Shown one piece after another: positions 10,760 to 62,376 of a DNA stretch of 64,000 bases (its first letter is position 1; each line of letters begins with the position of its first letter). The stretch is from positions 1-64,000 of the IMG/VR virus record IMGVR_UViG_3300021440_000018, one strand, 5' to 3'. The notes under the pieces were generated by a model. That model did no database searches, was not told where the DNA came from, and saw only the letters and a list, made by a program, of their open reading frames with translations. The DNA comes from a virus. Position numbers and translations under genes: made by a program.

Positions 10760-13583
10760 GCAGGTACCTCAACTTTCTGTTCTCTGAATCCACGAAGAGG
10801 ACTCGATCTTCCGCCTTGACGTGCAGCACACGGTCCTGCCTGTCGACGACGAGGGTTCTATCCAACGAGGGGATGAAGATGTAGTCGGCAAGCGAGATTT
10901 CCGACGCCAGCGCCGACTCGGAGAGGTAGGCGAAGTACCCACCCACACCCATCGACGAGTCGCTGGCAGCCGCAGTCTCGGAGACCGATACCGGCATGAA
11001 GGCTGTCGCACCCTCAAAGTCGATCGCTGAGGTCGACTCGGTGGCGTCGGCGTAGAGGATGACCGTCGCGGAGGCGCTGTCCTGCGCGCTGGCGGATTCG
11101 CTGGCGCTGGCGGGTGCGCTGCCGCTGGTGCTGGCGCTGTCGGTGGCGGTCGTGGCCTCGACGATCGAGGCCGTCGTCGACTCGACGGCCGACGGCGTAT
11201 CAGCCGCCGCAGCCGCCTCGGCGTGAGACTGCAAGTTGACGGCCGTGGCCGACGACGTATCGAGACCTGCCGCCGTCTCGGAAGCAACACCCACCGCGAT
11301 GAGGGTGGAGGACGCGCTGTCCGCGGCACTAGCCGCCTCGGTCGCCGACGCCGCGAGCGCTCTGGCGCCGTCCGAGGTCTCCGTAGCCGAGGCCGGCTCA
11401 GTCCGGGAGACAAGCAGGGTGGCCGTCGAGGACGCATCTTCAGCGGCTGCAGCCGACTCGGCATCCGAAACCAGCAGCGTGGCGACGGACGACTCCGTGC
11501 TGCTGGCGCTGGAAGACTCAGCACCCGAAACCAGCAGGTTGGCGGTAGCCGAGGTCGTATCGCTGGCGCTGGCCGACTCGGAAGCGTTTGCCGAGGAGGC
11601 CCCAGAGGTGTTGGAATCCTCCAGCGCGCTCCCGGTCTCCGAAACGGAGGCAAGCAGGTTGGCGGTGGCGGAGGTCGTATCGGCAGCCGCAGCCGCCTCC
11701 GTGGCATCGCCCACGGCGATGAGCACCGACGACTGGCTGTCCGAAGCCGCAGCCGCCTCCGTGGCCGCAGCCGGCGTGATCAGCACCCCCGCAGGGCTGT
11801 CGAGGGCCGAGGCACTCTCGCTGGCGCTGGCGGAGGTCGACTTGGTGCTGTCGACCGAGTCTGCCGCCGACGCAGATTCCGTCGCCGACGCACTGGTCGA
11901 TAGGACCGAGGTGGGCGCATCGGTGGCCGCACCCGACTCGGACTGCGACGCCCCGACGTTGGCGATGGCCGAAACCGTGTCGGTGGCCGACCCGGACTCG
12001 CTCGCCGTGACCCCGGACCCGGTGTCGGCCGACGTGGTCTCCGACGCCGAGGCGGGCTCGCTGGCGCTCGCCAGGACGCTGGCGATGGCCGAGACCGTGT
12101 CGCTCGAAGACGCCGCCTCCGTGGCCGACGCCGGCAGATTCGACACGGCCGACTCGGAGTCCGCCGCGGTGGCGCTTTCCGAAGTGGAAGCCGAGGTCTG
12201 CGTCGTCGCCGATTCGGTGTCAGTCGCGCTCGCGCTCTCAGAGGCCGAAGCCGGCGCCTGAACGGTTGCCGACTCGGAGTCCGTCGCGCTGGTGCTTTCC
12301 GAGGCCGACGCAGGGGTCTGCATCGCCGCCGACTCGGAATCCGCCGCGCTAGCGGCCTCAGTCGCCGACGCAGAAGTCTGCAGCGTCGCCGACTCGCTAT
12401 CGGATGCGCTGGCGCTCTCCGTGGCTGAGGCGCTGGTCTGCGTCGTCGCCGACTCGGAGTCCGTCGCGCTGGCACTTTCACTGGCGCTGGCCGAGGTCTG
12501 CAGCGTCGCCGACTCGCTGTCGGTAGCGCTGGCACTCTCGCTGGCGCTGGCGGCGGTCGACAGAACCGCGGACTCGGACTCGGTGGCCGACGCCGCTTCA
12601 GTCGCAGAGGCAACCTCGTTCGCTATCGCGCTCGGCGTGTCTGTCGCGCTGGCGCTCTCCGTGGCCGACGCGACAAGCGTGATGACCGCGGACCCGGACT
12701 CGGTGGCCGACGCAGCCTCGGTCTGCACCGCCGCCGTCAGCAGCACCGACGACGAGGTGTCGGTGGCGCTGGCCGACTCAGAGACGTTGGCGGCAGAGTC
12801 GGTGGTGAACGCCCCCGTGACGGCGACATTCGAGTAGGTCGAGATCCCGTCGAACCAGACCGCGGACGCCTTGTAGGAGACCCCCGAGGTCAAGCCGCTG
12901 ATCGCAGCGGCTGCGTTCAGGTCGAACGAAGTCGTCGTGGACGTGGGCGCCGTGTCGTAGCCGGCTGCGGTCGCCGCAGACCCGGTGCCGTCCTGCCCGG
13001 CGACGATCTGCGCCGCCGTGGGAGCCGTTACCGCCGACGGGTAGATGACCCAGTAGATGCGCTTGGGCACCACGACGGCGTCGGTAGTGTCCGAAGCCGA
13101 TGCAGCCTCGCTCGCCGAGGCGACAAGTGTGGCGACCTGGCTGCTGGACTCGGCCGCGCTGGCGGCCTCGGTCGCGGCTGCACCCAGGTTCGATACGGCG
13201 TCCTCGGTGTCCGCCGCGCTAGCAACCTCACTCGCGGAATCCGGGAAAGAGGCCACCGAACTGGGGGCGTCCGCTGCGCTGGCCACTTCATCCGCGGACG
13301 CCAGGAACGTGGCAACTGAACTGGGGCTGTCCGACGCGCTGGCCGCTTCAGTTTCCGAAACCAGGAGTGTGGCGACCGCACTCGGGGAGTCTGTCCCGCT
13401 CCCTGCCTCGGATGAACTGGAAACAACCTGAGAGGTAGCGCTGGCCGAATCAGAAGCAGAGGCAGACTCGGCTATGACTGCCAGGTCAATCAGGTCGCGG
13501 TCGAACCACCCCGCGACCTGCAACTCGGGGTCGAACCACCCCGCGTCAAGCAGGGCCTCGTCGAACTGGCCGAGGCGGGCCAT
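10752..13583 (-). CDS. Ala/Ser/Glu/Thr-rich repetitive fibre-like protein (943 aa)
   Basis: About 20-aa repeats (SASESASATDSESATxQTSA), one internal Fn3-like insert, C-terminal DRvLxV repeats. Confidence 0.75.
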   Translation of the reverse strand: MARLGQFDEALLDAGWFDPELQVAGWFDRDLIDLAVIAESASASDSASATSQVVSSSSEAGSGTDSPSAVATLLVSETEAASASDSPSSVATFLASADEVASAADAPSSVASFPDSASEVASAADTEDAVSNLGAAATEAASAAESSSQVATLVASASEAASASDTTDAVVVPKRIYWVIYPSAVTAPTAAQIVAGQDGTGSAATAAGYDTAPTSTTTSFDLNAAAAISGLTSGVSYKASAVWFDGISTYSNVAVTGAFTTDSAANVSESASATDTSSSVLLTAAVQTEAASATESGSAVITLVASATESASATDTPSAIANEVASATEAASATESESAVLSTAASASESASATDSESATLQTSASASESASATDSESATTQTSASATESASASDSESATLQTSASATEAASAADSESAAMQTPASASESTSATDSESATVQAPASASESASATDTESATTQTSASTSESATAADSESAVSNLPASATEAASSSDTVSAIASVLASASEPASASETTSADTGSGVTASESGSATDTVSAIANVGASQSESGAATDAPTSVLSTSASATESASAADSVDSTKSTSASASESASALDSPAGVLITPAAATEAAAASDSQSSVLIAVGDATEAAAAADTTSATANLLASVSETGSALEDSNTSGASSANASESASASDTTSATANLLVSGAESSSASSTESSVATLLVSDAESAAAAEDASSTATLLVSRTEPASATETSDGARALAASATEAASAADSASSTLIAVGVASETAAGLDTSSATAVNLQSHAEAAAAADTPSAVESTTASIVEATTATDSASTSGSAPASASESASAQDSASATVILYADATESTSAIDFEGATAFMPVSVSETAAASDSSMGVGGYFAYLSESALASEISLADYIFIPSLDRTLVVDRQDRVLHVKAEDRVLFVDSENRKLRYLHG

Positions 13584-18954: not shown

Positions 18955-20640
18955 CTATGTCACTTTGTCCTTCAAGCGGAACTTCATGGGCATGCACACC
19001 GGAAGCTGGATCAAGCTGCGCCCCACCCCCTTGATGCGCGCTGCCACCCAGGCGTAGAGATGGGCGTGGTGGTAGTGATCCTCCCCGTCCGTCTTCTGCC
19101 ACGAATACTCCATCTCCTTGGAGTCGGCCTGGTACGTCTTCACCCGCTTCATGCTCATATGGTGCGAGATCACCAGGTCGTCCTCGTCGGAGGCGATCTG
19201 GCGCATGTGCCCCTCGCGGATGTAGTTCATGTAAGCGTCCAGGGCCCTGTTGCGGTTGATATTCACCTGCCGCACGAACTCCTGCCCCTTGTCCGCGACC
19301 TCTTCCTTGTCGATGACCGTGTGCGTCAGGATCGACCTCGTCCTCGTGTACACCGCGGCGTAGCAGTTGGGGTCCGCGTCCTGGATCGCCATCACCGTCT
19401 CGGCGTGGGGGGCTGAATCGATCACCGTGCACAACACCCGGTACTGCGCGCGGAGTTCAAAGTAGCGGGCCTTGGCGTTGCCCATTGGAACCTGCTCCTT
19501 GTGCACGACAAGGGCGTCCCCCCAGGCGTCGACCGCCCAGATGTTGAAGTGGTAGACGCTGCCCACGTCCACGCCCATGACGTAGGCGCAGCCCCCGGGC
19601 CTCTCCTCTTGCACGAACATGCCCTCGAAGTCGGCGCGGGTCAGCGTCGCCTCGCTATCCTCAGCCGGCAACCCCAGGTTGAAGTTGTCGAAGTCCTGCC
19701 TGCGGTTGTACTTCGTGCTGGCAAGCACCAGGTCGCTGACCGTAATGACCCGTGGCGCGTCGAACGGCGTGATCTGGATGCCGGCGCCCGTATAGTGCTC
19801 GTCGGGGTTCTCACAGACCCATTGGCGGTGCTCCGGCAGCAGCGAAGGCACGTCCCCGCACTTCGGGCACACCACCCTCGCCTCCTGCCACCGGATCCGC
19901 GTCAGCGCGTGCTTGTTGATGTCCTTCAGGTTGCCCAGGAAACCCGGAATCTCGACGTGCTTGTAGTAGTCGGGGGTGAACCAGTGGCCGCAGTGGTGGC
20001 ACCTGCACAGGTTCCAGTACCTCTTGCTCTCCTCGAACGACTTCGAGATTCCGAACCCGGGCAAGGTCGGGGTGCTCAACCTCGTGATCCGCTTCCACGG
20101 AGAGTGCGTCAAGCGGGAGAAATACTGCCCGAGCACCTCCTGGTCGCTGAAATCGACCTCGTCGTGGACCAAATGGTCGCACGGGATCGAGATCGGGGCG
20201 TTCGAGCTGGCCGCGCCCCGGATGTACAGGAAGCTGTCGCCGAACTGCTTGACCTCGTTGTTGTCGTTGGTGCGGTGGATCGCCTCGCGCATCACCTTCG
20301 AGCCCTGAATGACCGGGTCGATGCGCGTCTTCGTGAACGTGCCCGCGAACGCGGCCGTGGGCAGCGTGTAGGCCACCGTATAGGGGCGCAGGACGTTGAC
20401 CAGGGCAAGGGCCATGCGCGTGCTGGCCTCCGACAAGCCTACCTGCGAGCATTTGCGCACATCCACCTGCTGCGCCGTCTCGCTCAGCACCCGTTCCTGG
20501 AACTCGTGGGCGTCGTACGAGTACGGTTGGCCCGCGTAGGTGGTGTTTTCGGTCACCCACTTCGCAATCGAGGCAGCAGTGTGCTTTTTGAGGACCGCTG
20601 TACGCAGCCTCAAGAGGTGTTCACGGTAGATGGAGTCCAA
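18955..20640 (-). CDS. terL: Terminase large subunit, lambda gpA type
   Basis: KCSQVGLSE Walker A variant, LVHDEVD Walker B, STPT coupling motif, CxxC pairs, MGVDVG nuclease and DHYxH motifs. Confidence 0.9.
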   Translation of the reverse strand: MDSIYREHLLRLRTAVLKKHTAASIAKWVTENTTYAGQPYSYDAHEFQERVLSETAQQVDVRKCSQVGLSEASTRMALALVNVLRPYTVAYTLPTAAFAGTFTKTRIDPVIQGSKVMREAIHRTNDNNEVKQFGDSFLYIRGAASSNAPISIPCDHLVHDEVDFSDQEVLGQYFSRLTHSPWKRITRLSTPTLPGFGISKSFEESKRYWNLCRCHHCGHWFTPDYYKHVEIPGFLGNLKDINKHALTRIRWQEARVVCPKCGDVPSLLPEHRQWVCENPDEHYTGAGIQITPFDAPRVITVSDLVLASTKYNRRQDFDNFNLGLPAEDSEATLTRADFEGMFVQEERPGGCAYVMGVDVGSVYHFNIWAVDAWGDALVVHKEQVPMGNAKARYFELRAQYRVLCTVIDSAPHAETVMAIQDADPNCYAAVYTRTRSILTHTVIDKEEVADKGQEFVRQVNINRNRALDAYMNYIREGHMRQIASDEDDLVISHHMSMKRVKTYQADSKEMEYSWQKTDGEDHYHHAHLYAWVAARIKGVGRSLIQLPVCMPMKFRLKDKVT

Positions 20641-20881: not shown

Positions 20882-21296
20882 CGCCGTTACCCAGCAGTTT
20901 TTCGTATTCTGTCAAAAAGGCGGCTGCACTTTCCTCCGGGAGCTTCGACAGCACCCGAATCAGCAGGTTTTCCACGTTCTTGAACCTCTCGGCCGTGTAG
21001 ACGCCCATCTGCATCTCCGCGAGCTTGTTCAAGCTGCTCGCTACTGCGTTCGCCACCTGCGCGCGCTGGTTCACGGGCACATCGCCGTCGTCGATCACGT
21101 CTTTTTGCAGCGTCCTGATGGTGTGGAACTGCAGAAGTAGCTCCTCCTCCAGGTTGATCTTGGACAACTCCAGCGCCGGCAACTGCTGCGTGATCTCGTC
21201 GCGGTACTTGATCAGCAGATCCGTCGGCAGCGAGGACCAATTGAAGGGGGCCGCGGCCCCCTTACCGATTTTTTGGACCTGTTTCTCGTCGAACAT
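20874..21296 (-). CDS. Possible terminase small subunit
   Basis: Helical 140-aa protein upstream of TerL; start MFDEKQ inferred. Confidence 0.45.
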   Translation of the reverse strand: MFDEKQVQKIGKGAAAPFNWSSLPTDLLIKYRDEITQQLPALELSKINLEEELLLQFHTIRTLQKDVIDDGDVPVNQRAQVANAVASSLNKLAEMQMGVYTAERFKNVENLLIRVLSKLPEESAAAFLTEYEKLLGNGDG

Positions 21297-21918
21297 AGAC
21301 TCTGCCTCTGTATTTGGGTTTGGCCAGGACGCGGGCGACGGCCTCGGCGTGGGCGGTCCTTTCGCCGCGGGCGATGGACTCCAAAGCTCGTAGCTTATCA
21401 AGCTCCAGCCGCTCTGCCTCGGCGATCTCGTTGGCCATCCGGGTCCGATTGCGCTGGCTGACCTTTTTCAGGTCCTTCCACGGCATGTTGAAGTGCTTTT
21501 CAAGCAGCTTGGTGATCCAGCGACGGACCTGGCGTGGGTGCAGTCCTGTGCCGGCGGCGGCGTCTTCGAGGGTGACGCGGCCCTCGATGTAGCCGAGGGC
21601 CCAGGCTTTGTGCATCTCCCACTTGATGGCAGTTTCCTGGCGCTTGACGATGTACGTCTTGACGGGTCTCTGCGCGTGCCATGACTCCTGCAACCTATTC
21701 AGCGCTCTCGGACTGATTCCTAGCCTCGCTGAGGCATCACTTCTTGTGATTTGGTCAGTCTTCAGTAGGTCCAGTACCTCGAAGAGGAGTTCCAGTCGGC
21801 GGCCCCATACAGTGATCCGGTGCCGCATGGACTCTGGTGTGAGCCCGATGATTTCTGCTGCTTGCTCTACCGATAGTGTGTTGTCTCTTAGGCCGATGAA
21901 GATGTCTGTAAAGGTCAT
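21262..21918 (-). CDS. Multi-HTH DNA-binding protein
   Basis: Three HTH-like segments (SVEQAAEIIGLT, TRSDASARLGIS, TLEDAAAGTGLH..QVRRW). Confidence 0.7.
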   Translation of the reverse strand: MTFTDIFIGLRDNTLSVEQAAEIIGLTPESMRHRITVWGRRLELLFEVLDLLKTDQITRSDASARLGISPRALNRLQESWHAQRPVKTYIVKRQETAIKWEMHKAWALGYIEGRVTLEDAAAGTGLHPRQVRRWITKLLEKHFNMPWKDLKKVSQRNRTRMANEIAEAERLELDKLRALESIARGERTAHAEAVARVLAKPKYRGRVYVRRETGPKNR

Positions 21919-21949: not shown

Positions 21950-22273
21950 TCAGTATTTCTTCAAGTAAGCCTCCAGTGCTCTGCTTAGGACAATGTCCAT
22001 GGGGATCTTGTTGTGTTCAGCGAGTTCTCTAAGAGCTTTCAGGGTCTCGGGGTCACCTTTGATGGTGATCCGAGTCTCTTCCTCTTTTTTAGGGTTGGCA
22101 ATTGTGTTGCTATGTGCCCGTAAGGCCATCCCTAGAACGTCGGGGCGCTGCCTGGCCATCAGGATGGCGATCTTAGCGAGCTTGGCCTTGGGGACGGGCC
22201 CTTCGAGGCTGTCGCTGAGGCTTTTCGGTACCCGAAGGGAGAGTCGTGTGTCCATGGTGAGTGCATTATGCAT
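21950..22273 (-). CDS. Tandem ribbon-helix-helix DNA-binding protein
   Basis: RLSLRVPKSLSDSL and RITIK.DPETLKALRELA..IVLSRALEAYL. Confidence 0.6.
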   Translation of the reverse strand: MHNALTMDTRLSLRVPKSLSDSLEGPVPKAKLAKIAILMARQRPDVLGMALRAHSNTIANPKKEEETRITIKGDPETLKALRELAEHNKIPMDIVLSRALEAYLKKY

Positions 22274-22321
22274 TCAAAAGTTGGGGGATGTGAAATTTTT
22301 TTCTTGTGGGGGTGGTTGCCC

Positions 22322-22333: not shown

Positions 22334-22462
22334 AGGCCGACGGAAACCTACCCCGTCAACGATCGATGTGCATAGCCCCCCATTGCCGACGATGCCCCCT
22401 CCCCCCGCAACGCGAGTGGCGCGAGTGGCGCGCGTGGCGCGCATGCGCTGGCATCAGCGGCG

Positions 22463-22525
22463 CGCCCTCGCCCTCGCCCTCGCCCTCGCCCTCGCCCTCG
22501 CCCTCGCCCTCGCCCTCGCCCATGC
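22463..22525 (+). repeat. (CGCCCT)x9 tandem repeat
   Basis: Read directly from the sequence. Confidence 0.95.
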
Positions 22526-22578
22526 GCGCGGGAGTGCGTGCGATGACATCAGCGGCGCCCCCTAGCAGTAGCGGCGGC

Positions 22579-22692
22579 ATGGGCGAGGGCATGGGCATGG
22601 GCGAGGGCAGGGGCGAGGGCAGGGGCGAGGGCATGGGCGAGGGCATGGGCGAGGGCATGGGCGAGGGCATGGGCGAGGGCATGGGCGAGGGC
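22579..22692 (+). repeat. (NNGGGC)x19 tandem repeat, inverted relative to the preceding array
   Basis: ATGGGC/GAGGGC/AGGGGC hexamers. Confidence 0.95.
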
Positions 22693-22902
22693 ATCGTCGG
22701 CGCCACTAGTGGGGCACTGCGGCGCCGACAATGCCCACAATGTGCTAGGGGTCTTTGTTGCGGCGCCGCAACGCGGGCGGTTAGCGCCTAGGGAAAACCC
22801 CTATGTAATGAGTGCCATGTATAGTCGATACTGCATGCAGGTGGCGCCGAGTGGTACCACTGCTAACCGCGCCGACAACGGCGCATCATTGGAGTACCTG
22901 AA

Positions 22903-23547
22903 ATGTCGAACCGTACAACAGTCAACGCACTGGCCGACGCACTGCAAGGGCTAGCGGGGAACATTGAATGCCACGTTTCCACAGTGGCCCATGAAATGCA
23001 CTGCGCTATCGCTCTCATCGTGCGGCATGGCACAAATAACCCCCTCGTTTTGGCAGCATCCCGCATTGGTGAACTGCGCAAGGGCAGAAGGGGGGATGCA
23101 GTGCGCGCGGCATTCTCGGCCGCACTCGGCGCGGTCCCCATGCTGCACTACGCGGGCGGCATCGTGACGGATACGCGCGAAAAGGGGCAACGCCGAGGAA
23201 CCGACGCGCAGGCGGCCGAGGCGGCCGAGGCGGCCGAGGCGGCATTTGTGCTTGCCTTCGCAGAATCCTACAGCGCGCCGCGCGACGTGCGCGCCAAGGG
23301 CGACCCGGTGGCGCGCGCCTTCGATGTGATCGCGGCATTGTCGGATGATGAGTTGCGCGCTGCACTGGTGGCGCGCATCGATGCCGCCGACCGGATCGCG
23401 CGGGAATGCGGGAAAGCCCGTGCAGAGCTCGCAGCGCGCAAGGTTGCCAGCACTGCGCCGCGCCGCATCGTGCGCGCCACGCCGGCCGCCACGCCGGCCG
23501 CCACGCCGGCCGCGATCGAACCCGCGCCGATCGCGCTCGCAGCGTAA
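22903..23547 (+). CDS. Hypothetical Ala-rich protein, first ORF of the right arm
   Basis: 214 aa, GGAG RBS, internal AAE and ATPA repeats. Confidence 0.6.
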   Translation: MSNRTTVNALADALQGLAGNIECHVSTVAHEMHCAIALIVRHGTNNPLVLAASRIGELRKGRRGDAVRAAFSAALGAVPMLHYAGGIVTDTREKGQRRGTDAQAAEAAEAAEAAFVLAFAESYSAPRDVRAKGDPVARAFDVIAALSDDELRAALVARIDAADRIARECGKARAELAARKVASTAPRRIVRATPAATPAATPAAIEPAPIALAA

Positions 23548-23648
23548 CGCGAGGGGGGCACGCCGGCCGCATGGTCGGCGTGCCCTAGGGCATGCGCTAC
23601 CGCATGCCCTAGGGCTGCGGCATGGTCCAGCCATGCCGCCCCCTTGCG
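23548..23648 (+). ncRNA. Candidate four-way-junction structured element
   Basis: Closing stem plus three 9-13 bp hairpins with G-U pairs. Confidence 0.4.
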
Positions 23649-24430
23649 GGCTATCGCACGCCATACCGCGCGCCGTAGCATCCGCCAAAGGTCGATCTTT
23701 CAAAACCTAGGGGTTTCCCGTTGCCACGTGGCGCCACCATGCGCGCCGCACGGGATACCCGCGTGCACGTCTAACGGGCTTTCGGCGCCAGCATCCGCGC
23801 CAGCCTACCGCATTGCATCCCGCTACCATCCGCGCCACCCGGCCGGGTAATGGTAGCGCTCGCATGTGGTTTGCAGAGTAATCGATTCGTGCATGTGCCC
23901 CCCTAGGTCATCCAATGGTTTGCCGACGTAGTGATAGCGCTACCATCGGCAACGATTCGACCGGATGGCATTAACGGTTGCCATTCGTCAAACCCTACCC
24001 TTTCCCCTCTCAGTGGTCCCGGATGCCATAGGCTACCGCGGCCCTTGCCCATGTCGTTGATCCGACCTTTGTACCAGGCCGGAGCGCTGGAAGTTATGAC
24101 CCCAGTAGCAGGCACAGAAAAACCGAGCCCCGCATGGACCCCGCGAATTCCCCCCGTATCGTTACCCGGATGCCCCGCTGAGGTTCGGGGAAGTAGCCGG
24201 CGCGACCCGGTCGAATCGTCAGAATCCCCCCGCCCAGGCCCACGCTAAAGCCCACACTCGTGGCCAAGCCCACAAACCCCATTCGGGCTCGACCTGGCGG
24301 GCGGTCAGCGCACGGTGAAACATGGATACGCCTACCCGCTGCTCGAAAACGTGCACCAGCCCCCTGCATGGGGGCTACCTCAAGCCCGCCGAATCGGCCA
24401 CTTGGCCGGATTAACACGGTCTTGAGGTAG

Positions 24431-24510
24431 GGCCCACACTGTCACCTTTTGGCCCACACTGTCACCTTTTGGCCCACACTGTCACCCTTTGGGACACAGT
24501 GTCACCCTAC
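24431..24510. repeat. Four 20-bp phased repeats (GGCCCACACTGTCACCTTTT)
   Basis: Read directly from the sequence. Confidence 0.9.
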
Positions 24511-24554
24511 TTTCGGCCATTTTCTGTCCGAAAATGTCAGCTTTGCAAGTGCTC

Positions 24555-24742
24555 CGACGAACAATCAAGCACTTAGCACATCCTCTCGAACTTCCTTACA
24601 AAAAACCCAAAAGGGTCGTACGAGAAGCACTTTTACGAAAAAAATTTCATGAAGTGAAAACGAAATTCCCGTTAGGTACCCCCCTTTCGGACTTTTCGCT
24701 AACTTTTTCGAGAGGATGTCCTAAGTGCTTGATTCTTCGTCG
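24555..24742. repeat. 36-bp inverted repeat (34/36 identical), each arm holding an IHF consensus, around an AT-rich 116-bp spacer
   Basis: 24555-24590 versus 24707-24742; AATCAAGCACTTA fits WATCAANNNNTTR. Confidence 0.85.
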
Positions 24743-24781
24743 CCAACCCCCCAACTGCCCAAAAATTAAGCAGTTTTCAGG

Positions 24782-24840
24782 GGCCCACACTGTCCCAAAG
24801 TGGGCCAATGTGTCCCACTTTGGGACACAGTGTCCCCCTC
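24782..24840. repeat. Three 20-bp phased repeats including palindrome GGGACACAGTGTCCC
   Basis: Same motif family as 24431-24510. Confidence 0.85.
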
Positions 24841-24977
24841 CCCGACCCAAAATCCGCCGATTTTTTGACACTCCCGCAACTTGGGTAGCCACTCGGCTAC
24901 ACTTCCGCCCCCAAGGGGGCTTGAAACGGCTCCCCGGCCCAGGCCGGAGACGGGGCCCAACCTCGAAAGGACCTGAG

Positions 24978-25106
24978 ATGACCCCCCACGCCCACGCCCA
25001 CGCCCCCATCGGAGCCCCCGCCGAAATCCAGGCCCAAATCCCCATCGGCGAGGCCACCGAAATCCCCTTCTCCACCTGGCTGATGGCCAAGTTCAAGGGA
25101 GCCTGA
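24978..25106 (+). CDS. Small hypothetical protein
   Basis: AAAGGA RBS, 42 aa. Confidence 0.45.
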   Translation: MTPHAHAHAPIGAPAEIQAQIPIGEATEIPFSTWLMAKFKGA

Positions 25107-25489: not shown

Positions 25490-25647
25490 TGGACCACATC
25501 CTCCACGACTTCAACACCCACGGCGCGGAGGCCCTGCGCCACCTGGATTCGGACCTGGGCGCGGATCAGGTCGACGTGTTCATCGCACGGCACGAGTCCA
25601 TCGACGAGATCGAGATCGAGCACACACCCGAGGAGGGCTTGCAATGA
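25489..25647 (+). CDS. Hypothetical protein
   Basis: TGATG coupling with the upstream ORF. Confidence 0.5.
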   Translation: MDHILHDFNTHGAEALRHLDSDLGADQVDVFIARHESIDEIEIEHTPEEGLQ

Positions 25648-25832
25648 AGCTCAATAGGCGCGAATTCGCAACGATCCGGGCGGCACTGCTCTACTGGCAA
25701 GCCAATGAGCCGTACAAGGACAGCCCCGGGTTCGACCACATCGCCACGGACGGGGGCACTCTCGTGCCCATGTCCGAGTCCGAAATCGACGCTCTTTACG
25801 AGCGGCTCAACTTCTTGGAGTACGAGCAATGA
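25644..25832 (+). CDS. Hypothetical protein, paralog of the next ORF
   Basis: GGAGG RBS; LNxR..ATxxAALxYW motif. Confidence 0.6.
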   Translation: MKLNRREFATIRAALLYWQANEPYKDSPGFDHIATDGGTLVPMSESEIDALYERLNFLEYEQ

Positions 25833-26044
25833 ACCTGAACCTCAGACAACTCGCCACCCTGGTGGCCGCGCTCGACTACTGGAAGCGCGAGGGCCTGATG
25901 TCCAACGGCTACGAGCACGAGACGGCCCGACTCTCGGGCCTGATCGAGCCCCTTGCCCAGGCCGAAATCGACGACCTCAGGTGGCAACTCAGGGAGGCCA
26001 TCGTCGAGAAGGGCACCACCAGTACCCAAACCAAGGAGTCATGA
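25829..26044 (+). CDS. Hypothetical protein, paralog of the previous ORF
   Basis: ATGA coupling; same motif. Confidence 0.6.
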   Translation: MNLNLRQLATLVAALDYWKREGLMSNGYEHETARLSGLIEPLAQAEIDDLRWQLREAIVEKGTTSTQTKES

Positions 26045-31542: not shown

Positions 31543-32187
31543 ATGGCTAGGATTAAGGATGAGACGGGGAAGCGATTCGGGTCCCTCGTAGTGGTTGGTG
31601 CCGGCCCGATGGCCCGTAATCTTAGGCATTGGGTGTGTCTGTGTGACTGCGGATGGACCACTGCACCAATTTCAGGGGCGGCTTTACGCTCCGGGAATAC
31701 TAGGTCCTGCGGGTGTCTGAAGAGGACGAATAACGCGGCTAGGACCCACGGGATGACAGGGCATCCCGCTCTGGAGTCCTATAAAGGGGCTAAACGCAGA
31801 TGTCTAAGCCCGAGGTGCCACTCGTACCCCTTTTACGGCGGGCGTGGTATTAAGTTTCTGCTGCCCGCGTTCAGCGAATTTTGGTTTGTGCTGGGCTCTG
31901 CGTGGTTTCCGGGGGCTACCCTGGAGAGAGTAAACAACGAGGGGCATTACGAGATCGGCAATATCCGATGGGCCACACGCGCGGAGCAGTGCTTGAACAC
32001 CAGAAACAGCGTGCTGTTAACCCACGGCGGAAAAACACAAAACCTATCCACCTGGGCCGCTGAACTCGGGATCAACCCCGGGAGTCTGAGTGAGAGGGTT
32101 AAGAAGTGGGGGGTGGACCGGGCGCTATCCACGCCCAAGAAAGTACGTTTGTTTGACTTATCTACACACAAGGAACCTTCAACATGA
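31543..32187 (+). CDS. HNH-type free-standing homing endonuclease
   Basis: GKRFGSLVV, CLCDCG, TRSCGC, YGGRGI, LERVNNEGHYEIGNIRWAT; lower GC. Confidence 0.8.
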   Translation: MARIKDETGKRFGSLVVVGAGPMARNLRHWVCLCDCGWTTAPISGAALRSGNTRSCGCLKRTNNAARTHGMTGHPALESYKGAKRRCLSPRCHSYPFYGGRGIKFLLPAFSEFWFVLGSAWFPGATLERVNNEGHYEIGNIRWATRAEQCLNTRNSVLLTHGGKTQNLSTWAAELGINPGSLSERVKKWGVDRALSTPKKVRLFDLSTHKEPST

Positions 32188-36643: not shown

Positions 36644-36684
36644 TTGACACTTCCACAATCCGGGGCGTATTATCCGCGCCCCGG
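36644..36684 (+). promoter_or_regulatory. sigma70-like promoter with an inverted repeat around the -10
   Basis: TTGACA-18-TATTAT; CCGGGGCG/CGCCCCGG flank the -10. Confidence 0.55.
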
Positions 36685-43530: not shown

Positions 43531-46467
43531 ATGGCCTCCAACTGGTTCTTCCAGTACCAGCGCCACGGCGGTGAAGACGCCTGGGTGCTGGACTTTGCCG
43601 ACAACAAGGCGAAGGTGCTGGCGGAGATCCGCCCCGCCTTCACCACCGCCCTCGACCTGAGCGCCATCCCGGACGATGGTGACTGGTCCAAGGTCCGCTA
43701 CCGCGGGCCCATGTACTTCGACTTCGATGCAGCCGGCGACTTGCCGCTGGCGTGCACCCAGTTCCTGATCTTCCTGGACAAGCTGGAGAATGAGTTCGGG
43801 TTCGACCTGAAGCAGGCGTCGCTGTTCCTGTCGGGGGGCAAGGGGTTCCACATCACGATCCCGGCCGAGTGCTTCCAGCCCAAGGTGCCGGCGACCGGCA
43901 CCGCCTGGTTGCCCTACGTGTACCGCACCATGGCCGAAGCCATGGTCGTCGACACCATGGACTTGCTGGTCTACACCGGCAAGCGTGGGCGCATGTGGCG
44001 CACGGCAAACGTGCAGCGGGACAGCGGGACCTACAAGGTGCCTATCACGCCGGAGGAGGCGTGGACGATCACCCCGGACCTGTACGCCGAACTGTGTGCT
44101 GCTCCCCGCGAAGTGCCCCCGCCCTCGCCCGCGTCGTGCAACAGCAAGCTCGCCATGCTGTTCAACCTCGCCAGGGAGAAGGTCGTCGCCAAGATGCGCG
44201 GCAAGAAGAAGCGCGTCGAGCAGGCCAGCACGCTGCTCGATCCCTGGCGCAAGTCGAAGACGCACCCGCCGACCATGCTCGGGCTGATGGACGGGTCCCT
44301 GGTCAACCCCGACGCCGGGTTCCAGAGCCTGTCGATGCAGCTTGCCATCTACGCCACCACCGTTGGGTTGGGGCTGGATGAGTACCTGGAGCGCTGCCGC
44401 GGCCTGTGCGAGAACCACGTCAGCGACAGCTACCGCTACAACACCTTCGCCAAGCGGCAGGAGGAGTTGGCCCGGATGTGGCGCTACATGGCCGAGGACA
44501 ACAGCGAGTACGACTACGCCGTCGGACCCCTGGTGAACCTGGTCAAGCCCGGCGTGTCATGTCCCGACCTGGGCGTCATGGCCACCGAGGATACCGGCGA
44601 CGTGCGCGACGACGTGCATGTGGCTGCGCCGGCCGCCTCAGGGGAGGAAGGTGACGCGCCCCCCGTGATCGATGCCCACATGGGCATTCGTCGGGGTGTG
44701 TTCATGAACGCCGACGGCATTTTCAAGCGAGGCAACGATACGGTGGAATCTCTGTGTCGAGCCTCGATACGGAAGGTCGATGCGTTCTACCACGCCGACA
44801 CCAAGAACTTCCAGGGCTACCAGTTCAACCTCACTGCTCACGGCATGACGAAGAAGGGGGTCCTGCTGGGGGCCGATGCGTTCACCTCGGCCAATTCGCT
44901 GCGGAAGTTCTTCGCCGCGCATCAACTGTCCTTTATGGGGGGTGAGCCGGAGACGGCCGCCCTGCTCGACATCATGAGTGAAAAAGCTGCAAAGGGCGGG
45001 CGAGTGTTCGTCTACCCGAGAGAGGGGTTCTTCATCATCAACAACCCCCTGCTCGATGAGCCGACCCCGGTCAAGGTCTACCTCACCGAGCACGCGTTCA
45101 TGTCCTCGGTGCCGGTCGAAGACCCGGCCTACTTCCGCATGCGGTACCGGCCGGAGTCGGCGACCAACACCTACAACATCGACATCCATCGAGCCCCCGA
45201 GCTTGACGAGACGATGGTGCCCGCGCTGCACGATCTGCTCTCCTTCAACCGTCACGATGTGGTTGCCGATATGGTGGGCTGGTTCGTGGCCTGCCACTAT
45301 CGCAGCGTGTACCTGCACTTGTTCAGGCAGTTCCCATTGCTGCAAATGTACGGCGAGGCGGGCTCTGGAAAGACGCAGACTACGCTGATGCTCGGACACC
45401 TGCACTGGTACATGAACGAGGTCTCGTTGCGCAGCGCCTCCAGCGACACACCGTACGTCGTCGACTGCTACGCCAGCAGCAGTACCAGTGCCCCGTATCT
45501 GATCGACGAGTTCAAGCCCCGGGAGATGCGGGCGCTCAACGGTGCCAGGCACCCGAAGCTGAAGGACGTGTTCAAGGCCAGCTACGTGGGCAGTTCTGCA
45601 GGGGGCCGGGGGACCGTGAACAAAGCGGCGGCCGACAACCCCATGGCGACGATCAACTCCCGGTGCACGGCCCCTATCGCGTTCATGGCCGAAGCCATCG
45701 AGATGGAGACCGCGATCATCGAGCGCAGTGTGTGCGTCAACTTCTCGAAGTCATACCTCACGAACCAGCGCAAGCAGGCGTTCAAGCGTTTGGAGCATAG
45801 TCACCGGGCTATCTCGGCCCTGGGGCGAGAGATCGTCGAGTGCGGATTCGGCCTGGACCTGGATGAGAAGCGGGCGTCGGTGGAGTCGATCATCGCCGAC
45901 ATCAACGCCGGTCTCCCCGACTTCGACGACCTTGAGGCGAAGCGGCCGTCGGAGCGCTCGATCTTCAACCGCGCCGTCATCATCGACTCCTTGCGCACGC
46001 TTAAGGTCATCTTGAAGCGGCGCTTCGGCACGGAGTTCGACGCTCCCATCGATGCACTGCTGGAATGGAAGGCCGACGAGGCGGCATCCGAGCAGGCCAA
46101 GGTCATTCAGTCCTTGGGCATCAGCGAAATCTCCAAGGTGCTCAACCGCATCTCGCTGCTCAGCCAGGACGTGGGCCGCAGTTGGGAGATGCGCGAGGAC
46201 AAGGACTACATCGTCGGCGACGGATGGGTCGAGATCAAGCTGGCCAGAGCTTACGACAACTACCGGCTGTTCTGTTCGGCCACCAACGACACTCCGCTGT
46301 TCGACTCGCTGGACACGTTCATCCATGCTACCAACTCGTACTCGCCGTGCATCGACAGGTTGTGCGTCAACTCCGAGTTGCGTGCTGACGGCAGCAGCGA
46401 GCGCATCGCCAGATTCGACACAACCAAACTGACCAGAGAGGGGGTACAGACTTTCAACAAAAGGTGA
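43531..46467 (+). CDS. AEP primase fused to a P-loop helicase-like domain
   Basis: YFDFD and SGGKGFHI primase motifs; GEAGSGKT and LIDEF. Confidence 0.85.
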   Translation: MASNWFFQYQRHGGEDAWVLDFADNKAKVLAEIRPAFTTALDLSAIPDDGDWSKVRYRGPMYFDFDAAGDLPLACTQFLIFLDKLENEFGFDLKQASLFLSGGKGFHITIPAECFQPKVPATGTAWLPYVYRTMAEAMVVDTMDLLVYTGKRGRMWRTANVQRDSGTYKVPITPEEAWTITPDLYAELCAAPREVPPPSPASCNSKLAMLFNLAREKVVAKMRGKKKRVEQASTLLDPWRKSKTHPPTMLGLMDGSLVNPDAGFQSLSMQLAIYATTVGLGLDEYLERCRGLCENHVSDSYRYNTFAKRQEELARMWRYMAEDNSEYDYAVGPLVNLVKPGVSCPDLGVMATEDTGDVRDDVHVAAPAASGEEGDAPPVIDAHMGIRRGVFMNADGIFKRGNDTVESLCRASIRKVDAFYHADTKNFQGYQFNLTAHGMTKKGVLLGADAFTSANSLRKFFAAHQLSFMGGEPETAALLDIMSEKAAKGGRVFVYPREGFFIINNPLLDEPTPVKVYLTEHAFMSSVPVEDPAYFRMRYRPESATNTYNIDIHRAPELDETMVPALHDLLSFNRHDVVADMVGWFVACHYRSVYLHLFRQFPLLQMYGEAGSGKTQTTLMLGHLHWYMNEVSLRSASSDTPYVVDCYASSSTSAPYLIDEFKPREMRALNGARHPKLKDVFKASYVGSSAGGRGTVNKAAADNPMATINSRCTAPIAFMAEAIEMETAIIERSVCVNFSKSYLTNQRKQAFKRLEHSHRAISALGREIVECGFGLDLDEKRASVESIIADINAGLPDFDDLEAKRPSERSIFNRAVIIDSLRTLKVILKRRFGTEFDAPIDALLEWKADEAASEQAKVIQSLGISEISKVLNRISLLSQDVGRSWEMREDKDYIVGDGWVEIKLARAYDNYRLFCSATNDTPLFDSLDTFIHATNSYSPCIDRLCVNSELRADGSSERIARFDTTKLTREGVQTFNKR

Positions 46468-50487: not shown

Positions 50488-53400
50488 ATGAAGAGAGCCA
50501 TCATCGATTTGTCCAGCGTAGTCTGGACCGCCCTCCTCGCGGGCAAGGACAGCGAGTACGGCAAGACCGTCGAGTTCGACGGCAAGCAAGTCCACATCAA
50601 TTCGGCCGGCTACGGCTTCGACAACGCCCTGAACCACATCGAGAAGGTCATGGCCGACCTGAGTCTGGTGCCGCACCAGATGACCTTCGTGGTCGAGGGC
50701 AAGGACAGCAAGCGTGAGCGCACGAGCTTGCACCCCGGCTACAAGGCCGGGCGTGGGCGCCCCCCGGAGGCGTACGAGGAGTTCGTGGCCTGCCGCGACA
50801 AGATCCTGCGCACCTTTCTCGACCTGGGCTCGCTCCAGGCGTGGCAGGACGGCGGGCTGGAGGCCGACGACGTGATCGGCTACCTCGCCAAGAACCTCGA
50901 CGGTGAGCGCTGGATCGTCAGCTACGACAAGGACCTGGCCCAACTCGTAGGCGGCGACATCCACCACCTGCGTGGCGGCAAGGTCGACGAGAACCCCTTC
51001 GGGGACTTCGAGCACCGGCTGATCCCCGTGTGGATCGCCCTCGTCGGCGACAGCGCTGACAAGATCCCCGGCGCCAAGGGCTTCGGCGCGGTCGCGGCCC
51101 AGGACATCCTCTTCGCCTTCGGAAACGACGGGCTGGAGTTGATGGAGGACCTGATCAAGACGCGCACGCTGCTGCGCCTCGAAGAGGATCTGGCCACGCT
51201 GCCGAAGCTGCAGAAGATCATCGACGACGCCGGGGGCGTCTACATGAGCTACGAACTGGCCCGCCTGCGCATCGAGCGTGTGAACACCCTGCGCCGCCCC
51301 CTGCAGTGGAAAGTCGGCATGGTCAAACCCTCTTCGCAGTGCGAGGAGCAGACCCTGCGCAAGTGGGCAGGGCAAGCCCGCCTGATCCACGCCGGCAACT
51401 ACGCCGAGGCCCGCGCCTTCTTCGCCAAGCAGGTGGCGCGCACGCCGGAGTTCTGCCTTGACCTTGAGACCCATGTCGACGAGCAGTCCGAAGAGTGGCT
51501 GGAGCGGCGCAGCACCAAGGGCGGCGGAGTCGATGTCATCGGCTCGATGATCGTGGGCTGCGGGTTGTGCTTCGGGCCCAACGGCGAGTACCACTTCTAC
51601 CTCACCACCAAGCACGTCGAGGAAGAAGGCATCCGCAACCTGACCCTTGCCCAGGTCCGTGAGTTCCTCGAACTCATCCCCAAGGACAAGATCACGGTGG
51701 CGCAGAACGCGGCCGGCTTCGAGTTGCCGGTCATGTACAACGCCTTCGGTGAAGCGTGGAAGGACAACGGCTGGCGCGGCATGTTCCCCAACATGGTGGA
51801 CTCGCGCATCGCGGCCACCTACTGGGATGAGGATCAGCCCTCTCACGGCCTGAAGCAGATGTCCAAGCTGCTGCTGGAATACGACCAGGAGACCTACGAG
51901 CACGTCACCACCGTTGACGGCGTGCAGTACAAGATGAACGAGCTTACCGCTCGCCACGTCCTGAACTACGGCCTGGAAGATGTCGTCACGGCGATGGCGC
52001 TGTGGCGCTTTTACCGCGTGATCATGGAACTCGACGGCACCCTGGACGCCTTCATGCGCCTGGAGCAGAAGCCGATGTACCTGTCGGCCCTCGGCTACGC
52101 CCAGGGGGTGCCGATCAGCCTGCAGCACCTGAACAAGCTGCGCCAAACCGACGACGAGGCATTCGTCGAGCACGGCGCTGTGCTCGACGAGTTGCTCCTG
52201 GGCCTGGGCTGGGACGGCACGGTGTGCCCCGTGTACACCGAGATCACCCCCGCCAGCGTCAAGGAGGCGGTCCTGCTGCTCACCGGGCTTGAGGCTGACT
52301 TCAGGGTGCGCCTGCCGGCGAAGATGTCGCAGGCCATGGACGAGTGGGCCGACGGCCTGATCGAGGAGAGCGAGGACAACGAGATCCCCGGCTCGCGCAT
52401 CAGGCTGTTGTCGGCCTACGTGCGCAACGGCGACGTGGACAGCATCAACGAACTCGTGGCCCGCCACTTCAGCGGCCGCCCGAAGTTCGACGTGGCCTCG
52501 CCCAAGCAGGTGGCCCGGCTGGTCTACGAGCGCATGGGGCTGCCCGTGCGGCTGCGCAACAAGCCGACCGATGTCATGCGCGCCAAGGGCATCCACGAGG
52601 GCACCGCCCGCACCGACGACGACGCCCTGAAGATGGCGCAGAAGATGGGCGACGTGACTGCCGGCACGCTTGAGCATCGCGCGCTGAGTGCGCTGATCGA
52701 GATGAAGTCTATCAACACCAAGCGCGGCCTGTACTACGAGCCGTACCCGGCCATGGTGCACTGGAAGACCCGGCGCATCCATCCTGAACTCGTTCAGTCG
52801 GGGACTAACACGCGGCGCTGGGCTGCACGCAACCCGAACATCCAGCAACTCGACAGCGCCCCGGGCGGCATCCGCTCCGTGGTCCTGCCCCACCACCGCG
52901 ATGCCGTGGTCGTGTCGCTGGACGAGAGCGGGCAGGAGGTTCGCCAAGCGGCCGACTACTGCCGGGACCCGAACCTGCTGTCCTGCTTCATGGGCACGGC
53001 TGAAGAGATCCGCGACGTGCACTCCATCGTCGGCTCCAAGATCCTGAGCATCCCGTACCGTGACCTGCGCTCTGGCGCCGACCTGCCCGAGGGCGCGGGC
53101 AAGGTGCGCAGCATCGCCAAGACCGTGCTGTTCGCCAGCTTCTACGGCGCCGGGGCCGCGAAGATCGGCGAGAACCTGGGCATCAGCGAGGGCGAGGCCC
53201 AGGACTACATCGACGCCATCTACGCCCAGTTCCCCGACCTGGCGAAGTGGAAGTCTGAGACGGAGCGCTTCGCGGAGAAGCACGGGTGGGTGCCGGTGCA
53301 CGGGGGCACGGTACGCCACTTGCGCAAGGCCCTGCTGTCGGACAACAACTACGAGAGCAGCAAGGCACTGCGGCAGGCGTCCAACGCTCGAATTCAGGGC

Positions 53401-53712
53401 GCTGGCGCCAACCAACTCAAGACCATCATGTCCGCGGTCTGGGACAGCGACATCATCGAGCGGTACGACTACCGCTGGTACTTCCCGGTGCACGATGAGA
53501 CGGTCCACAGCGTGGGCCGCGGCGACGTGGCGGCGTGTGTGAAGGAACTCCATGGGTTGATGACCAAGCAGTTCCTGGGGCTCGTGCCTTCGGCCTCGTC
53601 CATCGGTCTTGGACCTACCTTCGGCGACCTGATCGAGATCGGCGAGACTTACGACGTGGGCCTCATCGAGAAAGCCCTGAACGACATCTTTGAAATGAAA
53701 GAGGCAGCATGA
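50488..53712 (+). CDS. polA: Family A DNA polymerase with 5'-3' and 3'-5' exonuclease domains (Pol I-like)
   Basis: YKAGR, EADDVI, DKDL, GDSADKIPG; LDLET; NPNIQQ, DESGQEVR, KTVLF..FYG, HDE. Confidence 0.9.
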   Translation: MKRAIIDLSSVVWTALLAGKDSEYGKTVEFDGKQVHINSAGYGFDNALNHIEKVMADLSLVPHQMTFVVEGKDSKRERTSLHPGYKAGRGRPPEAYEEFVACRDKILRTFLDLGSLQAWQDGGLEADDVIGYLAKNLDGERWIVSYDKDLAQLVGGDIHHLRGGKVDENPFGDFEHRLIPVWIALVGDSADKIPGAKGFGAVAAQDILFAFGNDGLELMEDLIKTRTLLRLEEDLATLPKLQKIIDDAGGVYMSYELARLRIERVNTLRRPLQWKVGMVKPSSQCEEQTLRKWAGQARLIHAGNYAEARAFFAKQVARTPEFCLDLETHVDEQSEEWLERRSTKGGGVDVIGSMIVGCGLCFGPNGEYHFYLTTKHVEEEGIRNLTLAQVREFLELIPKDKITVAQNAAGFELPVMYNAFGEAWKDNGWRGMFPNMVDSRIAATYWDEDQPSHGLKQMSKLLLEYDQETYEHVTTVDGVQYKMNELTARHVLNYGLEDVVTAMALWRFYRVIMELDGTLDAFMRLEQKPMYLSALGYAQGVPISLQHLNKLRQTDDEAFVEHGAVLDELLLGLGWDGTVCPVYTEITPASVKEAVLLLTGLEADFRVRLPAKMSQAMDEWADGLIEESEDNEIPGSRIRLLSAYVRNGDVDSINELVARHFSGRPKFDVASPKQVARLVYERMGLPVRLRNKPTDVMRAKGIHEGTARTDDDALKMAQKMGDVTAGTLEHRALSALIEMKSINTKRGLYYEPYPAMVHWKTRRIHPELVQSGTNTRRWAARNPNIQQLDSAPGGIRSVVLPHHRDAVVVSLDESGQEVRQAADYCRDPNLLSCFMGTAEEIRDVHSIVGSKILSIPYRDLRSGADLPEGAGKVRSIAKTVLFASFYGAGAAKIGENLGISEGEAQDYIDAIYAQFPDLAKWKSETERFAEKHGWVPVHGGTVRHLRKALLSDNNYESSKALRQASNARIQGAGANQLKTIMSAVWDSDIIERYDYRWYFPVHDETVHSVGRGDVAACVKELHGLMTKQFLGLVPSASSIGLGPTFGDLIEIGETYDVGLIEKALNDIFEMKEAA

Positions 53713-60745: not shown

Positions 60746-61180
60746 GTGAACCCAGGGATAGTCCAGGGATACATCCGCTTCGGCTCAGTCCCCCACTCCA
60801 TCCTGACCTACCTGCACGATCATGGCCCCAGCCTCGCTTCGCAGATCAAGGTCGCCGAGCAGCGTCAGGTCAGCGCGACCATCATCCGGCTGCGCAAGGC
60901 TGGCCTCATCAAGGTCGTGGGCCGGCAGAGCAAGGTCGGGATGCGCTCGCACCGGGTGTTCGACTTGGCGCACTCGGACACCCCCGCCCTCGACGAGGCC
61001 CGGCACCCCCCGATGACGGACACCGAACGCCGCAGGGTTCAGCGGGCCCGGGCCAAGATCAAGGTCAGCAGCGTGTTCGACTTCCGGGGGTCGATCCCCC
61101 TCAGTCCAGTCGCGCCGCCAGGTCCGAGCCGCGCATCGAGAAGTACCGGAAAAACATCTGCTCCGACCTGTGCCCCGTGA
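60746..61180 (+). CDS. Winged-helix DNA-binding protein
   Basis: IL.YL..HGP…VSATI.RLRKAGLI; AGGAGG RBS. Confidence 0.55.
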   Translation: MNPGIVQGYIRFGSVPHSILTYLHDHGPSLASQIKVAEQRQVSATIIRLRKAGLIKVVGRQSKVGMRSHRVFDLAHSDTPALDEARHPPMTDTERRRVQRARAKIKVSSVFDFRGSIPLSPVAPPGPSRASRSTGKTSAPTCAP

Positions 61181-62276: not shown

Positions 62277-62305
62277 ATAGAAACGCCGCTTCAGGAGCGG
62301 CGTCT
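62277..62305 (-). terminator. Terminator downstream of the attP tRNA fragment
   Basis: ACGCCGCT-CCTGA-AGCGGCGT followed by TTCTATT. Confidence 0.65.
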
Positions 62306-62330
62306 AAGTTGTTGATTACGTTGGAGTTTC

Positions 62331-62376
62331 TGGAGGCGCGGAGGAGAGTCGAACTCCTCTGGACGGATTTGCAATC
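62331..62376 (-). other. attP core: 3' half of tRNA-Cys(GCA)
   Basis: Minus strand reads GATTGCAAATCCGTCCAGAGGAGTTCGACTCTCCTCCGCGCCTCCA (anticodon loop, T-arm, CCA); the 5' half is absent. Confidence 0.85.

Follow-up and report, generated by a model that had tools for sequence, protein, structure and literature searches.

We identified a gene-free element of 410 bp (24431-24840) in the genome of an uncultured temperate freshwater phage, and we tentatively read it as an iteron-type replication origin of this phage. Its anatomy consists of two arrays of phased repeats placed around a pair of inverted arms, each with an exact IHF consensus site, and an A/T-tract core in which the genome reaches its lowest GC content. 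The repeat motif is unique to this locus in the genome, and one relative carries a positional analogue of the element. From these features we infer every binding event and any replication function proposed below. An origin or an early-operon switch remains the best pair of explanations, neither of them proved.

The sequence comes from an IMG/VR record of 79,164 bp, classed as linear and 99% complete according to CheckV, with a genome GC content of 63.1%. The window analyzed here is the first 64 kb of this record. The stretch is present in two freshwater metagenome runs, as Logan contigs that leave some parts of it uncovered, and no RNA run is listed for it. At the DNA level, a collection of 50,697 phage records gave zero matches to the element or its surroundings in either near or distant mode, and the best terminase match among GenBank phage records is 33% identical; this lineage is one with very few database relatives. 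The phage is temperate, as indicated by its integrase and a likely tRNA-type attP. This attP is probably of the tRNA-Cys type and located at about 62.3 kb, with integration probably taking place into a tRNA gene. An exact IHF consensus (62305-62317) is found beside the tRNA-Cys-like fragment, and since it is the only one of the genome outside the arms of the element, the host probably has IHF. Both ends of the contig are located within a coding tandem repeat of 147 bp (78833-79164 and 1-139) with copies about 90-93% alike, carried by a leftward gene (75019-79134, >1371 aa) that probably encodes the tape measure protein. These ends thus correspond to an assembly break, at which about 75 bp, or that number increased by a multiple of 147, seem to have been lost, and they are uninformative on the true genome ends.

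The gene layout, derived from third-position GC and family scans, comprises two arms that diverge at about 22.3-22.9 kb, the element being located elsewhere (Table 1). On the leftward side, the RHH gene is preceded by a strong sigma-70-like promoter, among the best in the genome (TTCACA-18-CATAAT, 22253-22294, minus strand). Transcription from this promoter is predicted to begin a few bases ahead of the second ATG in the RHH gene, and the message may therefore be nearly leaderless. Near-leaderless messages are seen for some maintenance repressors. The GC-rich arrays upstream are made of CGCGAGTGG (3.4 copies), CGCCCT (9.8 copies) and a 12-mer (8.5 copies), the last two being partly complementary. 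The position of these arrays is conserved, with contigs L065, L066, L069, L070 and L074 ending inside similar short tandem repeats. These five contigs of relatives stop 0.9-1.8 kb upstream of the terminase gene and have the repeats within their first 100-160 bases, indicating that such arrays break assemblies.

On the rightward side, about 880 bp devoid of any credible ORF (23548-24430) separate the 214-aa gene from the element. Many GC-rich hairpins were observed in this gap, as well as a terminator-like site near 24125-24147 on the minus strand, and the element may be the starting point of a leftward non-coding RNA. A comparable gene-poor gap exists in the relative L076 described below. Among the early genes, two adjacent small ones (25644-25832 and 25829-26044, encoding 62 and 71 aa) match no family and look like paralogues with similar N-terminal halves, judged by eye. 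An HNH endonuclease gene is also found there (31543-32187; PHROG 374, E = 8e-48), and its 3' end (32124-32148) is among the lowest-GC spots of the genome. The early arm carries nine copies of TGACACTT on the plus strand (25248, 28430, 29580, 29829, 33590, 36645, 39757, 42893 and 46469), which mostly correspond to a stop codon and a linker before a ribosome-binding site (TGACACTTTCACACAAGGAG...); at 36644 and 46468, the same word supplies the -35 of the genome's best promoter-like sites.

Table 1. Features of the element and of its genomic surroundings (positions in the window; R1 to R7, repeat units from left to right).
Feature	Position	Strand or direction	Remarks
Large terminase gene	18955-20640	leftward	late operon
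Triple-HTH protein gene (218 aa)	21262-21918	leftward	head of terminase operon
Late genes	leftward from 21918	-	order: triple-HTH protein, 175-aa protein, large terminase, portal, others
RHH protein gene	21950-22273	leftward	head of late operon
GC-rich hexamer and dodecamer arrays	22411-22736		upstream of RHH/HTH/terminase operon
214-aa protein gene	22903-23547	+	first rightward gene; nearest conserved gene, 0.9 kb upstream of element
GC-rich hairpin, left flank (GCCCCC-loop-GGGGGC)	24358-24378	+	
Left array, R1-R4	24431-24510		four 20-bp units; R4 nearly palindromic
Candidate leftward sigma-70-like promoter (TTGCAA-18-GAAAAT)	24519-24548	-	position-weight scan, about rank 15 genome-wide
Left arm, 36 bp	24555-24590	+	IHF consensus 24563-24575, then 15 more bases common to both arms
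A/T-tract core, 116 bp	24591-24706		39.7% GC
Right arm, 36 bp	24707-24742	-	IHF consensus 24722-24734 on minus strand
Candidate rightward promoter, weak (TCGCCA-16-AAAATT)	24740-24767	+	5 bp downstream of IHF site
Right array, R5-R7	24782-24841		three 20-bp units; R7 perfect palindrome
Matching GC-rich hairpin, right flank	24905-24921	+	between TTGACA hexamer (24865-24870) and first early ORF
First early ORF (42 aa)	24978-25106	+	strong third-position GC; opens early run
Small early genes	from 24978	rightward	long run, just downstream of element
Replication block	40-57 kb		SNF2 helicase, 978-aa primase/P-loop protein, PolA, SbcCD-like pair
PolA gene	50488-53712		
Tyrosine integrase gene	61101-62162		ends rightward arm
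tRNA-Cys(GCA)-like 3' part, with IHF consensus beside it	62305-62375	-	right upstream of integrase gene

The arrays contain seven 16-bp sites (GGSMCACASTGTCMCC), four on the left (24431-24506) and three on the right (24782-24837). The starts of the left sites are at 24431, 24451, 24471 and 24491 and those of the right sites at 24782, 24802 and 24822, with a spacing of exactly 20 bp, and TRF reports the left array as 3.8 copies with a 92% match and a score of 124. When up to two mismatches are allowed, GGSMCACASTGTCMCC has seven matches in the window, all of them in the element, compared with 1.03 expected from 100 shuffles, none of which reached seven. Outside the element, the whole 79-kb genome holds nothing better than scattered matches with three mismatches. 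TRF detected no other non-coding iteron cluster in the 64-kb window, except the GC-rich arrays at 22.4-22.7 kb. The original prediction of seven 20-bp repeats phased two helical turns apart is therefore correct, and these repeats are unique to the locus. They had also been described as variants of the palindrome GGGACAC-N-GTGTCCC, in agreement with our observation that R7 is exactly GGGACAC-A-GTGTCCC, R4 is one base off, and R1-R3 and R5 match at 12 of 16 positions. The element as a whole had been called mirror-symmetric, which applies to the 36-bp arms but not to the arrays, since these are direct repeats: 24451-24508 (R2-R4) and 24782-24839 (R5-R7) are 79% identical in direct orientation over 58 nt. 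R1-R3 and R5 share the same orientation, and each array goes from asymmetric sites to a palindromic one. As the sites are partly palindromic, a dimeric binder may be blind to their direction.

Between the arrays lies a 275-bp stretch at 44% GC that contains the inverted arms and the core. The arms agree at 34 of 36 positions, and both mismatches are C:C, so that no G-U signature is seen. The 208-nt span gives a folding z of -7.95 compared with shuffles. A search of Rfam returned merely a sub-threshold miRNA-hairpin match, which is due to the palindrome. The exact IHF consensus WATCAANNNNTTR occurs three times in the window for 0.12 expected; two of these matches are those of the arms and were counted as one duplicated event. 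A weaker dyad lengthens the arms to 24555-24621 and 24676-24742, and TTCATGAA (24646-24653) is displaced by one base from the axis of the arms. At each of three window sizes (60, 100 and 200 bp), the window with the lowest GC content in the genome starts inside the element, and the GC content of the core is far below the 63.1% of the genome. The arms with the IHF consensus, as well as the A/T-tract core with TTCATGAA near its axis, are found just as originally described. The element contains no GATC, and no DnaA box was detected in it with up to two mismatches. Searches of 185,579 species genomes and of IMG/VR did not return the arm sequence.

A strict sigma-70 scan of the element returned zero promoters. 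The two outward-facing candidates listed in Table 1 are weak consensus matches, and their predicted starts would place the nearest repeat of each array at about +6 or +7. For the leftward candidate, which faces the 880 bp without a credible ORF, the start is predicted near 24512 and R4 would cover about +6 to +21; for the rightward one, the start is predicted near 24774 and R5 would begin at about +7. The two GC-rich hairpins of the flanks form a direct pair bracketing the element.

We fetched relatives of this phage via the terminase and obtained 2 short contigs from IMG/VR and 17 loci from the metagenome collection, the genome collection containing none. Among these 19 loci, L076 (terminase 69% identical) is the sole contig reaching the position of the element. 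The RHH, triple-HTH and 214-aa genes are common to L076 and this phage, with 26-39% identity, and the L076 arrays are located 4.0-4.5 kb from the terminase gene, compared with 3.8-4.2 kb here. In L076, two arrays with a 20-bp period surround a core of roughly 400 bp at 37-49% GC with inner dyads. No alignment was obtained between the two elements, and their repeat sequences are unrelated. Such a conserved architecture with a repeat code that is not conserved is expected if a co-evolving DNA-binding protein reads the arrays. The L076 core contains a 13-mer, ATCAA-NN-ACTTAG, which matches the arm IHF site at 11 of 13 positions, a match with a chance of about 1% within the core by our own estimate. 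The second-best promoter-like site of the L076 locus (TTGACC-18-TATCTT) is also in the core, a few bp downstream of this IHF-like site and pointing outward at the right array; the same geometry is observed in our phage, with a weaker promoter. The DnaA-box consensus TTWTNCACA occurs four times in the 5.7-kb L076 locus for 0.30 expected, and all four are in the element, three within the repeat unit and one, a perfect TTATCCACA, independent of the repeat. Because the element studied here has no DnaA box, this evidence transfers to it by analogy only. The L076 repeat word gave chance coding matches only in IMG/VR.

The palindrome itself was found in L028, an unrelated IMG/VR contig, where the same 15 bp occur as six 21-bp iterons inside a gene. 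There, at 10835-11060, the six iterons are built on GGGACACAGTGTCCC and followed by about 4.5 copies of a 12-bp repeat. The gene that hosts them encodes a product with a weak score as a lambda-O-like initiator; it is directly followed by a gene for a DnaC-like loader and directly preceded, on the opposite strand, by one for a DnaB-like helicase. This L028 region is a putative lambda-like origin inside an O-like gene, and it indicates that an initiator can read the GGGACAC-N-GTGTCCC palindrome. The identity of the two palindromes could also be due to chance, with a probability that we estimate at a few percent in view of how many palindromic repeat arrays the collection contains. A homologue of the L028 O-like initiator was not found in our genome by tblastn or hhalign, and the N-terminal domain of this initiator has zero database relatives.

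Which protein of the phage could bind the arrays? The recognizable DNA binders are the RHH and triple-HTH proteins, encoded 2.2-2.5 kb from the element and conserved in L076. The genome gave no match to HTH_3 or Peptidase_S24 (so that no CI-type repressor was found), to Phage_rep_O or Rep3_N, to ParA (CbiA), ParB_N or ParM (StbA_N), or to the HU/IHF and resolvase families, and no regulator was recognized among the 20 early proteins scanned against PHROGs. Another candidate is the 214-aa protein, for which we found 10 distant metagenomic relatives, two of them on contigs of 77 kb and 22 kb, respectively, while IMG/VR scanned with these relatives gave nothing. In this family, the N-terminal 125 residues are conserved, with a DTRxKGxKRG loop after a beta-hairpin, and are followed by a long C-terminal helix. 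The structural model of the protein (pLDDT 83) is made of helices, the beta-hairpin and the long C-terminal helix; Foldseek and VIA-align returned no meaningful match for it (best Z 6.0, in a helical region), and PDB sequence searches were empty. Concerning replication itself, the 978-aa protein (43531-46467) contains a primase domain and a Walker A motif at residues 608-615, and the nearest predicted structures of its C-terminal half (Atlas) are primase-helicase fusions. This half gave zero matches to DUF927 and HTH_56, and no winged-helix domain was detected in it.

If the element is an origin, as we tentatively propose, a dimeric phage DNA-binding protein would coat both in-register arrays (4 and 3 sites), with all sites on the same side of the helix, two turns apart. 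IHF of the host would sharply bend the DNA at both inverted arms, and this bending could strain the 116-bp core, predicted to be the least stable duplex of the genome, until it melts. The 978-aa primase/P-loop helicase would then load, and the phage PolA would extend. Outward transcription at the edges of the core could make melting easier through the negative supercoiling left behind the polymerases. We favor the origin reading because the layout of iterons, AT-rich core and IHF sites recalls ori-lambda and the SaPI origins, because the motif occurs at a single place in the 79-kb genome and is accompanied by the lowest-GC core, because L076 has an analogue with DnaA boxes and L028 offers a precedent, and because the phage encodes a primase-helicase with no visible initiator or other iteron cluster.

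Several observations argue against an origin. Family scans revealed no initiator, and that of L028 has no homologue in the genome. The primase-helicase gene is 19 kb from the element, whereas the SaPI, P4 and lambda origins are in or beside the initiator gene. The element has no DnaA box, and the L028 palindrome match could be chance. Moreover, a temperate phage needs early operators, and the element is the sole operator-like array found. A GC-skew check had been suggested as support for an origin, and it did not provide it, as no clean switch is seen at this position in the cumulative GC skew. The original proposal of an origin or a nucleoprotein switch thus still gives the best pair of explanations in view of the anatomy, the uniqueness of the motif and the L076 analogue with its DnaA boxes, but neither the GC skew nor the location, away from the point where the gene arms diverge, speaks for it.

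The main rival explanation, which we consider somewhat less likely, is that the element is an early-operon switch with no origin function, in which back-to-back promoters would fire outward from the edges of the core, with IHF upstream of them and operator arrays from about +6. A lysogeny repressor or early regulator might bind these arrays cooperatively, perhaps bridging them over 331 bp and the IHF-bent core, and might so keep shut the rightward early genes and a leftward non-coding transcript. The phage is temperate, as judged by its integrase and by the tRNA-Cys-like fragment with an IHF site, and the element is located directly upstream of the early gene run. Its sites are operator-like, being 16 bp long, dyad-symmetric and two turns apart, and the leftward candidate TTGCAA-18-GAAAAT would start about 6 bp before R4. 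The IHF-promoter-array geometry is shared with L076, and the RHH and triple-HTH proteins, both conserved in L076, are encoded 2.2-2.5 kb away. Precedents for such a switch are the Mu early operators with their IHF site and the flanking sites of coliphage 186 CI. On the other hand, no HTH_3/Peptidase_S24 repressor was found and no regulator among the 20 early proteins (PHROGs); the promoter calls are weak, the rightward one being poor and the leftward one facing 880 bp without a credible ORF; and seven sites, near-perfect arms and the DnaA boxes of L076 would be superfluous for a simple operator.

The origin and switch readings are compatible, as outward transcription from the AT-rich core would also aid its melting. 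One could imagine, although we consider it quite unlikely, a dual-purpose array on which a protein of an undescribed family silences the outward early promoters in the lysogen and also licenses or blocks melting of the IHF-bent core. A single nucleoprotein complex would then set both immunity and origin firing, with the 214-aa protein as the obvious candidate, and relatives would keep the architecture while swapping the DNA-recognition code.

A terminase assembly site had been put forward as an alternative. It would be a pac site of the P1 kind, in which a terminase recognition protein binds the 4 and 3 repeats, IHF bends the DNA and terminase cuts the center, and we find it improbable. A site in the style of P1 pac is conceivable: the 4 and 3 repeat count is indeed that of P1 pac, which also has an IHF site (PMC10028697), the triple-HTH protein (218 aa) heads the terminase operon, and a repeat region near cos is annotated with two IHF sites in phiCTX. 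However, 2.5 kb separate the element from the triple-HTH gene, the closest one of the terminase operon, and this interval contains an opposed gene as well as the repeat block 22411-22736, while known pac and cos sites are in or beside the small-terminase gene. In addition, the element has no GATC, and the spacing between its arrays is 275 bp, compared with 161 bp for the whole P1 site.

For each of the remaining explanations, namely a centromere, an invertible segment, an attP and a MITE, a defining feature is missing, and together they are improbable. RHH proteins of the ParR type bind 20-bp tandem repeats, and both the 20-bp period and the RHH protein encoded 2.2 kb away would fit a centromere-like partition site bound by this protein, as would P1 parS, whose two box clusters are split by an IHF site (PMC10999674). 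The genome has no CbiA, ParB_N or StbA_N match, and an integrase with a likely attP makes plasmid maintenance unnecessary, which renders this explanation very improbable. We consider equally remote the alternative, also raised originally, that the 116-bp core inverts between its arms. The same applies to another recombinase substrate, to an attP and to a MITE inserted here. What speaks for inversion is that the 36-bp inverted repeats are near-perfect and contain IHF sites, and that the phage has a tyrosine recombinase. Against it, the gene of this recombinase is 37 kb from the element and adjoins its own likely attP, the phage encodes no serine recombinase, and the arms have neither an internal 13-8-13 dyad (of the lox/FRT kind) nor a flanking target-site duplication. 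The orientation of 24591-24706 was checked in low-depth Logan contigs of one run: two contigs bridge the left and the right arm, respectively, in the reference orientation, with no differences and no flipped joint, which is weak evidence because contigs drop rare variants and one of the two runs may be the source of the record. An attP at the element is contradicted by the integrase gene, located far off beside the tRNA-Cys-like fragment and IHF site of 62305-62375, and a chance insertion by the overall design shared with L076.

Mapped origins and immunity switches are almost absent for uncultured phages, and the element offers a concrete 410-bp test piece together with three candidate binders, the 214-aa, RHH and triple-HTH proteins. 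If it is an origin, it would be an iteron origin with paired IHF arms that opens the early operon and is remote from the replication genes, and it would define the binding motif for finding the initiator. If it is a switch, it would define the operators of a temperate phage that has no recognizable repressor. Either reading makes it a known kind of element and involves no new principle.

The sequence of the element, its 19-kb distance from the primase-helicase gene and its paired IHF arms match no described origin or operator that we can name, while its parts are classical. By its annotation, it resembles 'region 3' of the temperate Pseudomonas phage phiCTX (AB008550), which is non-coding, spans about 290 bp and contains R3 repeats and two annotated IHF sites; that region lies between attP and cos, and the record states no function for it. 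In P1 parS, an IHF site likewise divides the protein boxes into two clusters (PMC10999674), but this is its single IHF site, the whole spans less than 100 bp, and it requires ParA and ParB, neither of which was found in this genome. P1 pac is made of seven hexamer repeats (HEX4 and HEX3), an IHF site and a central cleavage region (PMC10028697), and our element similarly has seven repeats split 4 and 3 around a center, with an IHF site. They differ in that P1 pac is 161 bp long and located inside pacA with Dam-methylated hexamers, whereas the element is 410 bp long, intergenic, without GATC and distant from the terminase genes.

The early operator region of Mu comprises O1-O3 with an IHF site, and CI of coliphage 186 acts with flanking FL and FR sites. 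Multiple sites at two-turn spacing, IHF-assisted bending, divergent promoters and distant cooperating clusters would be common to these systems and the element. Unlike them, this phage has no repressor homologue that we could find, and its arrays are located downstream of the candidate promoters and not over them. In lambda, each iteron is dyad-symmetric. Ori-lambda has four sites with a spacing of about 20 bp beside an AT-rich tract (PMC7466680), and here too an array of dyad-symmetric iterons adjoins an AT-rich tract. The lambda origin is located inside the O gene, whereas the element lies outside any gene and has another array beyond the AT-rich tract, in a genome without a Phage_rep_O match.

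SaPI origins have repeats on both sides of a central AT-rich region and use self-loading helicases, some of them fused to a primase (PMC9371898). The SaPI iterons are 5-6 bp long, run in opposite directions on the two sides and number at least 2 on each side, whereas those of the element are 16-bp dyads in direct arrays. A SaPI origin lies immediately 3' of rep or pri-rep, whereas here 19 kb separate the two and the inverted arms carry IHF sites. The SaPI initiator binds its iterons through a C-terminal winged helix, of which none was detected in the primase-helicase of this phage. As in the SaPI/PICI origins with their Rep and Pri-Rep helicases (PMC9371898), repeats flank an AT-rich center in our phage, which also encodes a primase fused to a P-loop helicase-like domain, with no separate loader evident.
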